A stretch of 64,000 nt of DNA from Octopus vulgaris (taxonomy: Eukaryota), in NCBI GenBank assembly GCA_951406725.2, contig OX597830.1, forward strand, positions 78,864,001-78,928,000, read 5' to 3'. Position 1 is the stretch's first letter. Every line of letters starts with the position of its first letter. Below are positions 27,297 through 64,000 of this stretch, piece by piece. The notes beneath the pieces are model-generated. The model had not been told where the DNA came from and did no database searches. It was given only the letters and a program-made list of their open reading frames with translations. The position numbers were made by a program, and so were the translations under genes.

Positions 27297-27358
27297 AGAT
27301 TCCTCTAACTTTATGCTTGATTATGAGACTGACGTGCTTCCTACTGCGCTACCGAGGC
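27297..27358 (-). pseudogene. 3'-truncated intron-containing tRNA-Met pseudogene
   Basis: 5' exon with two substitutions, full type A intron and ATCT, then abuts a SINE fragment (about 27155-27290). T-arm and B box are missing. Confidence 0.88.
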
Positions 27359-27806
27359 CACGGGGAATTGTTTTCTCCTGTTGTGATAATAATTTTGGTA
27401 TGGTTTGGGGTGTGGGGGGTGTACGTACGTGCGTGTGAGTATGTGTGTGTGTGTGTGTGTACGTGTGTGTGTACGTACGTGCGCGTGTGTGTGTGTGTGT
27501 GTGTGTGTGTGTGTGTGTGTGTGTTCCAACAATGAACATTTAAGTGAGGAAAAATATTGCTTTCAAATTTTGGCGCACAGTCATCAAGTCCGGTGGGGCA
27601 GGGAGTAAGACGATTACATAGACCCCAAGGCTCGACTGCTACTTATTTTATCGTCTCCGAAAGGATGAAAAGGAAAAGTCAACTTCTGGTTATTAATACA
27701 AATAAATATATCCTCTTATACGGTACCCACGGGAACAATTTGAGGTCATTTCTTCTAACACAATCATCAAAACGATGTGTGTGTGAGTAATTGAAAAAAA
27801 AAATTG

Positions 27807-27900
27807 TGCCCCAGGTGAGGATCGAACTCACGACCTTCAGATTCCTCCAACTTTAGGCTTGATTATGAGACTGACGCGCTGCCTACTGCGCTACCGAGGC
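27807..27900 (-). tRNA. tRNA-Met-CAT: Elongator tRNA-Met(CAT) with 21-nt intron, type A (intron 27843-27863)
   Basis: GCCTCGGTAGCGCAGTAGGCAGCGCGTCAGTCTCATA[ATCAAGCCTAAAGTTGGAGGA]ATCTGAAGGTCGTGAGTTCGATCCTCACCTGGGGCA. Removing 21 nt after A37 gives a 73-nt eMet cloverleaf (G1:C72, T31/T39, TTCG T-loop). A long T-tract follows immediately. Confidence 0.94.
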
Positions 27901-28134
27901 TACCGAGTCAGCTGCTATACTTTTTGTGATAATACTTTAGCAAGGGAAGGCTGCGAATGGCGGAAACGTTAGCACGCTGGGCGAAATGCTTAGAAGTATT
28001 TCGTCTGCCGTTACGTTCTGAGTTCAAATTTCGCCGAGGTCGACTTTGCCTTTATCTTTTCGGGATAGATAAATTAAGTACTAGCTGCATACTGAAGTCG
28101 ACCTAATCGATTGGTCCCCTCTCCAAAATTTCGG

Positions 28135-28774
28135 GGATCTTTTCCTTTTGAACGGCAGACAATTTCTAGTTAATTAAACACTTTAAAACTTCGTATACTG
28201 GTAGAATGTGTCAAAATAAAACATTTTTTTTTCTCTTGGCTTTCTTGAGAAAATTGTAATTTGTTTGTTTAACGTAGTTTAATTTTTCGAATTTTAACCA
28301 ATCCTATGCTCTCTTTTGAGCTAAATTTGCTGCGTTTAAAACTGAGACAACATCATACACACGCTTTCCGTATACATACGGAAAGCGTGTGTATAAAATT
28401 ATAAAATTATTTTGTTTGTTAATTGTTTAAATCATTTTCCATTGCTTTCGGTTTTTTTACACGCGTAACAATTAAATTAATTCAACAATTAAGAAAAAAA
28501 AATTAGGGTTAGGGTTAGGTTTAGGGTTAGTTAGAGGATGTTGTCTCAGTTTTAGACGCAGCAAATGATTTTAGTTGAATGGAGGTAATCGATTGGTTAA
28601 AATTGCCGAAATGTTCGGATTTTCAGACGAAATATCTTATAAACTATAGAATTTTCTCAATAAAGCCAAGAAAAAATGATGTTTTATAAACACATTCTAC
28701 CAGTATACGAAATTTAAAAGTGTTTAGTTAACTAGAAATTGTGTTGATATCTGACGTTCAAAAGGAAAAGATCC
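28135..28774. mobile_element. Related 640-bp foldback MITE nested in a SINE
   Basis: TIRs GGATCTTTTCCTTTTGAACG / CGTTCAAAAGGAAAAGATCC, perfect TSD AATTTCGG, long imperfect inverted arms, perfect 19-bp hairpin at 28355-28394, TTAGGG repeats at about 28503-28530. Confidence 0.92.
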
Positions 28775-59922: not shown

Positions 59923-61432
59923 CACTGAAAGAACATTTCTACTTTTCTGATAATAGTTTAGCTATGGGCTGATGGTTACGGATGTTAGTGTGTACCTGCG
60001 CGTGCGCTTTGTGTGTTCGTGTGTCTGTCTATGTGAGTGTGTGTTGACCTACACATCTATCTAAATTGTATTGTGGTGGTGGTGGTGGTGGTGGTAGTAG
60101 TAGTAGTAGTAGTAGTAGTAGTAGTAGTAGTAGTAGTACAAACTATTCGACAGTTTGAGAAGCAGAGTCACCATCGTCGTCGTTGCCGTCACTGCCGAAG
60201 GCTCAGCGGAAGATGACAACTAATGACGGAGAGGGACGGAACTGGCGATTAACAACGAAGCTTACCGAAAGAAAATGTCTGAATTTCTTTGAACTTTCGG
60301 CTGACGCAATAGCATTCAATGACTAAAAGGTTATACCAACCTATACTTCAACTACCACCATCACCACTATCGCGACTATTACTGCTATTAAAACCAGCAC
60401 CACAACCACGACTAATACTACTACTACAACCACAACCACTGCCCTCCTTCCTATTACTAGTACAACTTCAAACATCACCACCAACACCATCGTTAATGCT
60501 GCTATCACCTTTCACAACCAACACCACCATCACCACCAACACCATCACCACTAACACCATCACCACCAACACCATCACCACCAACACCATCACCACCAAC
60601 ACCATCACCACCACCACCATCACCACCAATTGGTTAATCGATTAGTCTGTCAAAGCCCTTGCGTCACAGTCAGTGTCCTTATCAATGACTTACCAATTCG
60701 CTTTTTAAGCAACTCTTTCTCCGCAATACGTATTACATTTTCACTCTTCCTCTCATTTATTTGTAATAAACCTGAAGTGAAACATAACCAGTGTGCGTGT
60801 TTTTATTGGCGGCACGATCCTCCCAAAAGACATCAAAATCAACCTCAACGCATGATTTCACGTCAAGAAGCTTGCAAAACAAATACAAAATACAGAGAAT
60901 TAATGTGGTCTTCATCAGAGTCATGCCTGGCTTATAACCAGAAATCTCTCTGACGAAAATAGCGTTAATACTTTAGGTCGTTCAAATTTTTCTCAACCGA
61001 TCGATAGTCCGATTGAGTAAACCTGTCAACAATGAACCTATCATGACTACTGGAAACAACTGTTAGTCAAATTTATGACAGTATCACCATTAATTATAAT
61101 TAATGGTCATTACATATTTATGTAATTATGCTTTGTCTTGTATATCACTCTGTATAAAAAAAACTTTAATACAGACCACAACGATTTAGATCGAACGATG
61201 TGATTGATTAAAATTTGTGAAGGGCGTCCCCCAGCATTGCCGCTGTCCAATACCTAGAATCCGAAAAAGAAGAAAGGCAAAAAAGTCTAGTTCATTGGCT
61301 TTCATTTCTCATAGAGATAAGAATATTCGAAAAAATTGCAAACAACTTAAATGAAGTTGAATGAAAATAATCTTCATAAAAATTTAATCTGAAATAAAGA
61401 AAATTTTTAAAATATTAAAAAAAAAGTTGAAT

Positions 61433-61505
61433 CATCCCTGGTGGGATTCGAACCCACGACCTCTGGATTAGAAGTCCAGCGCGCTATCCCCTGCGCTACA
61501 GAGAC
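61433..61505 (-). tRNA. tRNA-Arg-TCT: tRNA-Arg(TCT), GTCTCTG variant
   Basis: Full cloverleaf, same sequence as 39587 and 50417. Confidence 0.95.
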
Positions 61506-61991
61506 AAGACGAATTCAGCTGTTTCTAAATAGTTTTTGGATCTTTACCTTTTGACCAACAGATTTTTAAAATATTTTTTTTTGTGACTAAACACTTTCAA
61601 ACTTCGTATACTGGTAGAAGGTGTCACATAAAACAGCTTTTACTCTTGGCTTTATTGAGGACATTCTGTATTTTGGAAGTTATTTCTTAAAGTTATCGTA
61701 TTTCGGTAATTTCAACCAGTCAATGATGTGGTAGTAGTAGTAGTAGTAGTAGTAGTAGTAGTAGTAGTAGTAGTAGTAGTAGTAGTAGTAGTAGTAGTAG
61801 TACAAACTATTCGGCCCAGCGGAGAATGACGACTAATGACGGAGAGGGACGTAACTGGCGATTAACAACGAAACAGACCAAAAGAAAATGTCTGAATTTC
61901 TTTCAACTTTCGGCTGATGCAATAACATTCAATGACTAAAAGGTTACTATACTTCAACTACCACCATCACCACTATCGCGACTATTACTCC

Positions 61992-63083
61992 TGTAAAAAA
62001 ACGATCGTACTTAAAGGAGTTGGTGACAAAGATGTATTTAAAAACACCGTAGGGTCGCCTACAAAAGAATAAGCCGAATACGTGGTATAAAGAATATGAG
62101 TGCCAGTAAATAATAAAGGAGAAAACACAACCGTTCTACTGATTGAGAGAGAAAGACTTTATTTACAGATGTGTACAATAAGAGTGTGTATGGGTGCTAG
62201 CAGAGTGTAGTATCTGAGTGCGTGCACATAAGTGTCTCTGTGTCCGTTGTAAGTACAACAATGGTACGTACAACAAGTGTTTGTGTCTGTGTGTTCTTGT
62301 GTGCGATACAAGAGTGAACATTAGTGCAAACACGGTGTATGCGCGTAAGACAGAATACAGAGCTTAGAATGAGTCTCTCGGGGTATTTCAGACAAGATGG
62401 ACTTTATTTACCAGTTCGCAGTAAGGTTACACAATAGTTATAGTCCTGTACAAGAAGTTGAGGTCACGAGGCAGAACCGGTCACTAAACTTGTTGTGTGG
62501 AGGTTGTGGCTATTATGCCGCGCCGGGTTACTTGATACAGGAATTCTTGCAGGTAGTTCTGGACTGTTAACCTTGGTGAAGTAGTCACAAACAGAGAGAA
62601 GTTAACCTGGGCGAATGTTGTGTACGTATCGTTGAAGTCGACGGTGATGATGTCGGCGGTAGAGAACGGCGACGGTAGAGAACGGCGACGGTTGAGATGA
62701 TGGCGGCGGTGGAGAACGGTCCTGAGTTGCTGCATGTTGGTCTCGTCGCTGGAACTGGCTGGTCTGGTCTTCGCAGCTGCCGCATGGTCAATGGTCAGAG
62801 ACAAAAGACCTCGATTCACTGGATCGCTGGGTTTTTATAACGTTATAGAGGCTCCAGAAGAAAACCCAAAAGACTGTGTCACATGAACTTATTTGGAAGG
62901 CACTGATTGGTTGGTTTACACATTGGCGCGAAATAAGTCAAGAGACAAACTGCGCCAACGCCAATCAATCAGAGCAGGAGACACAATAGGGCCCAAATAG
63001 CGGCCAAAGTTAACTGGTATCTACTACAATATTATTTCTAATATATCTCTCAAACAGTGAGGATACCACCGAGCTACGCTACA
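61992..63083 (-). mobile_element. Solo LTR, about 1.09 kb (unit copy)
   Basis: Near-identical to 50970. Confidence 0.75.
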
Positions 63084-64000
63084 CTACTATTACTATCATC
63101 ACCATCACTACCACCACGACAACAACAACTACAACTACAACCATTGCCACTGTCATCCCTGCTACTACTACTACCAGTGCAACTACAAACATCACCACCA
63201 ACACCATCGCTAATGCTGCTATCACCTTTCACAACCATCACCACCAACACCACCAACACCACCAACACCACCACCATCACCACCAATTGGTTTATCGATT
63301 AATCTGTCAAAGCCCTTGCGTCACAGTCAGTGACCTTATCAATGACTTACCAATGTGCTTTTTAAGTAATACGTATTACATTTTCACTCTTCCTCTCATT
63401 TATTTGTAATAATCCTGAAGTGAAACATAACCAGTGCGTGTGTTTTTATTGGCGGCATGATCCTCCCGAAAGACATCAAAATCAACTTCAACGCATGATT
63501 TCACAAGAAGCTTGCAAAACAAATACAAAATACAGAGAATTAATGTTATTTTCATCAGAGTCATGTCTAACTCATAACCGGAAATGACGCTGACGAAAGT
63601 AGCATTAATTCTTTGGGTCGTTCGATTTTTCTCAACTGATCGATAAACCGATTGAGTAAACCTATCACGACTACTGGAAACAACTGTTAATCAAATTTAT
63701 TACAATAAAGAAATATTTAATGACAGTTAATTATAATAAATGGTCATTACATATTTATGTAATTATACTTTCTTGTATATCATCCTATATTTTTTTTAAA
63801 AAAAGAGAAAAGACAGAACACAACCTTTTAGATCGATCGATGTGATCCATTAAAACCGGTGAGGGAGTTCCCAAAATGGCCGCAGTCCAATACCTAGAAT
63901 CTGGAAAAGAACAAAGGAAAAACGTTTAGTTCATTGGTTTGCAATTTTCATACAGATAAGAATATTTGAAAAGATTGCAAACAGTTTAATAAAGTTAAAT

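Follow-up and report, generated by a model that had tools for sequence, protein, structure and literature searches.

A 64,000-nt window of the Octopus vulgaris genome (assembly GCA_951406725.2, contig OX597830.1, positions 78,864,001 to 78,928,000 of the forward strand; coordinates below are those of the window) contains a tandem head-to-tail array of tRNA genes with three full units and a partial fourth. We consider it probable, at roughly three chances in four, that this array arose when unequal crossing-over recently multiplied a block of an old Octopus tRNA cluster, the copies of which are now patchily homogenised. Each unit carries a pair of Arg-TCT genes and a pair of elongator Met-CAT genes with a predicted intron, along with two pseudogenes. 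The array itself is a known type of locus, and the predicted intron of elongator tRNA-Met in an animal is its one unusual feature.

Organization of the tRNA array

Alignment of the window with itself by BLAST matched 30,769-46,292 to 41,549-57,157 (15,776 columns, 95.4% identity, offset 10,780, 25,289 bits) and 46,283-52,970 to 57,361-64,000 (94.7% identity, offset 11,078). The strength of this repeat match is far beyond chance, and it bears out the head-to-tail array with a period of about 10.8 kb that an earlier sequence-only reading had proposed at 27,297-64,000, with its right end open at the window border. With unit borders set in register on the Met-A gene, the array was divided into an edge unit U0 (27,807-37,937; 10,131 bp), which lacks a 1,360-bp segment at 30,769, followed by U1 (37,938-48,748; 10,811 bp), U2 (48,749-59,828; 11,080 bp) and the initial 4,172 bp of a partial U3 (59,829-64,000). 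Searches with three gene queries gave the plus-strand order Met-A, Arg, Arg, pseudo-Arg, Met-B, pseudo-Met in all three full units, with every gene and pseudogene on the minus strand, as had been claimed; the tRNA genes and their order were identical in 3/3 full units, and the partial U3 matched for the first two genes. The array is AT-rich, with a GC content of 0.35-0.42 across its length. U3 stops at the window end, 97 bp short of the expected second Arg gene. Because U3 is cut at this point and its last kilobase is nearly identical to U2, the array likely extends past the window, in line with the earlier expectation. In that last kilobase (~51,800-52,970 versus 62,830-64,000), U3 and U2 differed at 1 of 913 sites, which would indicate a very recent duplication or conversion starting there, or an assembly join.

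Of the 20 tRNAs that Rfam identified in the window, 14 belong to the array (seven Arg-TCT and seven Met-CAT) and the other six are Arg-TCT genes to its left. ARAGORN without intron search reported 13 Arg-TCT genes and no Met gene, so that all seven Met genes were missed; at a relaxed score it made 107 calls, mostly noise, from which the 20 loci also scored by Rfam were retained. The elongator tRNA-Met(CAT) genes of type A, each with a 21-nt intron, lie at 27,807-27,900 (U0; intron 27,843-27,863), 37,938-38,031 (U1; 37,974-37,994), 48,749-48,842 (U2; 48,785-48,805) and 59,829-59,922 (U3; 59,865-59,885). Those of type B, with an intron of the same length, lie at 33,051-33,144 (U0), 43,838-43,931 (U1; intron 43,874-43,894) and 54,677-54,770 (U2; 54,713-54,733). 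The tRNA-Arg(TCT) genes are all intronless and were located at 30,118-30,190 and 31,386-31,458 in U0, 39,587-39,659 and 42,188-42,260 in U1, 50,417-50,489 and 53,017-53,089 in U2, and 61,433-61,505 in U3.

The defective copies were found by BLAST. The pseudo-Arg retains the 5' 50 nt at 86% identity and lacks the B box in U0 (31,982-32,031), with counterparts at 42,772-42,820 (U1) and 53,612-53,661 (U2). The pseudo-Met of U0 (36,523-36,593) has a decayed intron, 79% identity and no B box, and its counterparts lie at 47,325-47,395 (U1) and 58,415-58,485 (U2). A 3'-truncated tRNA-Met on the minus strand at 27,297-27,358, comprising exon 1, the intron and the start of exon 2 without a B box, marks the left edge. 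Both the A box and the B box were present in all 20 full-length genes of the window, each of which is followed within 3-16 nt by a run of at least four T; the B box was absent from all seven pseudogene and truncated copies. The stems were paired as expected in 12 of the 14 full-length array genes. The exceptions were Arg 30,118, with a single D-stem mismatch, and Met-B 43,838, with an A29-A41 mismatch in the anticodon stem that would likely impair its function, while the Arg copy at 42,188 carries a G29-U41 wobble. Stem counts for the pseudogenes were taken in an ungapped register and are hence rough. Intact genes make up 334 of the 10,811 bp (3.1%) of a unit.

A predicted intron in the elongator tRNA-Met genes

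All seven intact Met genes are 94 nt long and contain a 21-nt insert after position 37 (37/38), an intron that the sequence-only reading had not mentioned. When intron search was enabled, ARAGORN called six of the seven as Met with a 21-nt intron and miscalled the damaged copy; when the 21 nt behind position 37 were removed, it called a 73-nt tRNA-Met in 7/7. The genes are of the elongator type because each has G1:C72, U31.U39 and TTC at 54-56, and not the A1:U72 and A54 of initiators, according to the marks described in PMC9023262 and PMC8450103.

In all seven genes, C32 is able to pair with the third-last intron base (-3) and positions 33/34 with -4/-5, the geometry described for the anticodon-intron helix (PMC10275265, PMC11408192). 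The same pairing is present in the truncated Met copy and in none of the three pseudo-Met copies when read in an ungapped register. Met-A and Met-B differ at 2 of 73 exon positions and at 9 of 21 intron positions, none of the latter in the first three or last five intron bases, and their introns are equal in length (21 nt). Such a fixed length with constant ends and a free middle is, at the level of sequence, the signature of a putatively functional intron and not of a neutral insertion, and we predict that the 21-nt insert is a spliced intron. When the Met precursors were simply folded, type B and the last type A copy formed the anticodon-intron helix and the three remaining type A copies another intron hairpin, so that folding alone is no evidence for an intron. 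The exact junction is ambiguous by sequence alone because of a 4-nt repeat, and ARAGORN placed the intron at 36/37. This 4-nt direct repeat lies on either side of the Met intron in the two old paralogues, as well as in the edge copy that is truncated, despite the diverged intron middle, and it would fit an intron gain through a small insertion or duplication.

Divergence between the units

After simple repeats had been masked and the edge of U0 excluded, the six unit pairs showed pairwise divergences of 1.40-4.10%, the closest being U2/U3 (1.40%) and U0/U1 (1.59%). Together with indels private to single units, these values uphold the earlier view that the units are distinct copies. The kinds of difference listed in the sequence-only reading were found in part: single-nucleotide differences (1.4-4.1%) and microsatellite lengths do vary between units, but in place of several kilobase-scale indels there is only one, the 1,360-bp segment missing in U0, beside a 213-bp insertion in U2.

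The differences are unevenly distributed along the units. Sites at which one unit is the odd one out were clustered, with 157 of 258 adjacent pairs alike versus 113.9 +/- 6.6 expected from 10,000 shuffles (runs test, p = 1e-4), and the per-kilobase divergence from the next unit rightward ranged from 0.11 to 6.5% with an index of dispersion of 7.6 (40 bins). The closest neighbour shifts along the unit: U0 equals U1 at 32-36 kb, U1 equals U2 at 38-40 kb and U2 equals U3 at 52-53 kb. Furthermore, the first 2.5 kb of U0 (~27.9-30.3 kb) are mostly an older paralogue, diverged by 12-21% in most 500-column bins, which corrects the earlier reading. A patchy mosaic with a stranded, diverged edge is the pattern expected of unequal crossing-over and conversion, and the mosaic divergence, its dispersion and the diverged left edge thus speak for the growth by unequal crossing-over that had been suggested. 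As to the position of the edge, a breakpoint within the Arg gene at 30,118 was not supported; the 14% divergence persists 100 nt upstream and drops only at ~30,285.

Two segments distinguish the units. The 1,360-bp segment, at 40,189-41,548 in U1, is present in U1, U2 and U3 and absent from U0. Within it, about 1 kb at ~40,190-41,180 (with copies in U2 and U3, missing from U0) has no match in the window outside the array, and its TG...CA-like ends and AATAAA motifs suggest that it may be a solo long terminal repeat. The 213-bp insertion, which resembles a miniature inverted-repeat transposable element and is confined to U2 (57,155-57,361), has perfect 19-nt terminal inverted repeats and an inner perfect inverted repeat of 24 nt, and sits in the most diverged U2 patch (6.5%). 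The units had been described as embedded in transposable-element debris; matches to other parts of the window demonstrate this for no more than 1,942 of the 10,811 bp of U1.

History of the array

Three lineages can be told apart in the 560 bp that follow the Arg genes; these lineages are 14-19% apart and differ by 0-4.2% within a lineage, and the 5' flanks of Met-A and Met-B are identical at 56 of 96 aligned positions. Given that these flanks are far apart but the tRNA bodies lie within 2/73 nt of each other, purifying selection or conversion acted on the genes on the old time scale. The locus thus looks like the product of two time scales, an old cluster of single-gene cassettes and then a recent block amplification.

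A tRNA gene with its own A box, B box and T-run terminator can be transcribed individually by RNA polymerase III. The following course of events may be proposed. Single-gene cassettes were duplicated locally long ago, with some copies dying, a step that can be read from the flanks and the defective genes. One block would then have reached a copy number of at least four by unequal exchanges that recurred with shifting breakpoints and left the old, diverged edge behind on the left; this step is suggested by the mosaic. RNA polymerase III would transcribe each gene alone, using the A and B boxes inside it and ending at its T run, the co-orientation of the genes being a by-product of duplication, and the tRNA splicing endonuclease would cut the Met precursors at 37/38, with ligation by RtcB, as established tRNA biology would predict. 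The extra gene dose from the array is likely a side effect.

Assessment of alternative explanations

Some observations weigh against the reading of a recently amplified, patchily homogenised block with a functional Met intron. The mosaic could in part come from the MAFFT alignment of indel-rich patches, and the bin with 6.5% divergence contains the U2 insertion. The stem mismatches in two of 14 full-length array genes suggest that some copies may be decaying. There is no sign that the exons of the recent units are more conserved than the spacer: those of the second Arg and Met-B genes vary at 4/146 columns versus 257/6,530 elsewhere in U0-U2, a weak test with small numbers. A plain insertion would also leave a 4-nt direct repeat around the insert.

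One rival reading is selection, under which the array would have been kept and expanded like ribosomal DNA (rDNA) to meet demand for Met-CAT and Arg-TCT tRNAs. The sound stems of 12/14 full-length array genes and the likely continuation of the array, with its almost unchanged last kilobase (1/913), would suit such a locus, as would the precedent of the human 1q23.3 tRNA repeat, in which genes likewise take up little of the unit (<6%) and the number of units ranges from 9 to 43 (PMC4041453). Yet genes occupy 3.1% of a unit, two pseudogenes were co-amplified in each full unit, six further Arg-TCT genes lie outside the array, and the units are 1.4-4.1% apart with private insertions; near-complete homogenisation of the rDNA kind was not found across the array, where divergence is patchy and indels are private. 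Because of the small gene share and of exons no more constrained than the spacer, a comparison of low power, we do not accept a dedicated dosage locus as shown, and the earlier description of an rDNA-like dosage locus for two isotypes was not borne out; we regard it as unlikely.

Two further explanations concern the Met genes and the array as a whole. The Met copies might be pseudogenes, or elements akin to short interspersed elements (SINEs), that carry a 21-nt insertion, the working elongator tRNA-Met genes being intronless and located elsewhere. The repeat at the junctions, the decayed intron-bearing copies that the array does contain, and the thousands of tRNA-derived loci in cephalopod genomes (~17,000 in the giant squid; PMC6962438) are what one would expect under this explanation. 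Nevertheless, it accounts poorly for the exact 37/38 site, the fixed length, the conserved anticodon-intron helix and the free middle of the insert, or for paralogues with far-diverged flanks that differ at 2/73 exon positions. The structure of a tRNA-derived SINE, with a decayed head, a shared body and tail and dispersed copies, was not found here either; stems and promoters are intact, the terminator directly follows the full-length genes, and apart from the duplicated cassette flanks no shared SINE-like body follows the genes in the window. We therefore hold this explanation to be very unlikely. That the array is an assembly artefact, with haplotypes of a single unit placed in tandem, is highly improbable: although U0/U1 (1.59%) and U2/U3 (1.40%) are near enough for alleles and the window's last kilobase hardly differs from U2, four mutually distinct copies cannot be two haplotypes, and neither the switching of closest neighbours along the unit nor the unit-private indels fit such an error.

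Comparison with known tRNA arrays

The human 1q23.3 locus is a variable number tandem repeat of ~98% identical 7.3-kb units, in which tRNA genes account for <6% beside microsatellites and transposable-element fragments (Darrow and Chadwick 2014, PMC4041453). The mammalian locus is further marked by a conserved CTCF site. The octopus array resembles it in its multi-kilobase head-to-tail unit, few tRNA genes, microsatellites and transposable-element fragments, and likewise has units of high mutual identity with the same gene order. Unlike the human locus (64% GC), the octopus unit is 10.8 kb long with 35-42% GC, and the GC-rich CpG-island unit of the mammalian locus was not found in the array (GC 0.35-0.42). 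The octopus unit also differs in combining two isotypes and two pseudogenes on a single strand.

Tandem tRNA arrays of Hydractinia and Nematostella have been described, and such arrays were termed unusual outside Entamoeba (PMC11067881). These cnidarian arrays likewise place animal tRNA genes at even spacing with similar spacers, but their copies number in the tens to hundreds and their spacers measure hundreds to a few thousand nucleotides, whereas the octopus array has at least four far longer compound units. In Entamoeba, array units hold up to five tRNA genes parted by microsatellite-like repeats (PMC2652664), which is similar to the situation here; however, nearly all its tRNA genes are arrayed and account for >10% of the genome, whereas the octopus window combines a single local array with clustered genes of the ordinary sort. 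In many tRNA clusters the genes as a rule point the same way (PMC2888827). The octopus array matches the structural definition of the human and Hydractinia types and presumably works like them. It adds a mollusc to the short list of animal tRNA macro-arrays and appears to stand midway in its homogenisation, in that fresh amplification is seen next to dead genes and old paralogues.

Implications of the predicted Met intron

The isotypes commonly given for introns in animal tRNAs are Tyr, Ile, Leu and Arg. For human, PMC10275265 names the intron families Tyr-GUA, Ile-UAU, Arg-UCU and Leu-CAA, whereas in the octopus window Arg-UCU is intronless and the intron is in Met. Intron-bearing elongator tRNA-Met genes were reported in all flowering plants surveyed (PMC11700998). 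The plant introns occur in the same isotype and have a conserved GAG-containing motif near the intron end, comparable to the GAG at -5 to -3 of the octopus intron, which comprises the bases that pair with positions 32-34. Plant Met introns, however, average 11-14 nt and start differently, compared with 21 nt in this animal (PMC11700998). The introns of tM(CAU) follow a kingdom-specific pattern (PMC12168002), and in yeasts, lineage-specific gains of tRNA introns occurred, the members of an isodecoder family tending either all to have the intron or all to lack it (PMC4090602).

A literature search yielded no animal intron-bearing elongator tRNA-Met and no octopus tRNA array; its coverage was partial, with GtRNAdb outside it, which makes this weak evidence of absence. 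The supplements of the Hydractinia paper had no match for intron terms, and no statement on a Met intron was found in the excerpts of PMC4536317, PMC6279123 and PMC6962438. Tentatively, and with the odds on balance against it, we propose that Octopus, perhaps along with cephalopods more widely, acquired the 21-nt intron of elongator tRNA-Met separately from plants and is without the Arg-UCU intron of vertebrates, that its internal methionine decoding depends on tRNA splicing, and that the 10.8-kb array is copy-number-variable and serves as a tunable source of that tRNA, which together would constitute an unreported animal tRNA-intron family.

We consider the Met intron the more useful part of the finding compared with the array. 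A canonical intron in elongator tRNA-Met, present in two natural variants that have only their ends in common, would suit the study of recent intron gain as well as that of intron-dependent modification, although the finding would be ordinary if databases already hold intron-bearing Met genes of molluscs. It also carries a lesson for annotation, as a tRNA scan without intron search overlooked all seven Met genes.

Neighbouring Arg cluster and other elements

Outside the array, at 12,039-24,959, there are six further Arg-TCT genes that are intact and have no intron, one on the plus strand (12,039) and five on the minus strand (16,720, 18,863, 21,974, 23,302 and 24,887), so that the gene at 12,039 is inverted relative to the other five. 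This cluster has its own older, piecemeal duplications with 69-95% identity, for example the fragmentary one of 16,572-17,874 and 21,844-22,993 (~90%). The 5' flanks of the six genes are 65-97% identical to one another over 60 nt and differ from those of the array genes, to which they are 52-65% identical. A 775-bp (GAGT)n satellite (19,303-20,077) lies immediately upstream of the Arg gene at 18,863, and a shorter (GAGT)n copy (23,461-23,617) lies upstream of its paralogue at 23,302.

A broken Tc1-like transposase fragment was detected on the plus strand at 20,497-21,282, its best named relatives being an Octopus sinensis protein (68%) and an Octopus vulgaris predicted protein. The latter, a public gene model of 123 residues, is covered by two pieces (97 and 27 residues) that are 100% identical to the window and most likely place it in Octopus vulgaris. 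The window has 93 stop-to-stop frames of at least 100 residues, by eye mostly simple-repeat, and the protein search covered the Tc1 fragment only. Its SINE-like repeats are ones that we take to resemble octopus families. Octopus SINEs derived from tRNAs are described in PMC4758252.

Among public sequencing runs, 24 were listed as sharing words with 27,530-33,220, a stretch that contains dispersed repeats; 20 hold some part of it and three hold at least half of its words (best 0.54). These 24 runs belong to nine studies with four coded organism labels, no RNA run is listed among the holders, and we draw no inference from them. The elements at 15,945-16,379 and 26,591-27,039 are 90% alike and contain a short CCCTAA-type repeat, and ends related to theirs can be seen by eye in the array at ~28,200-28,770.

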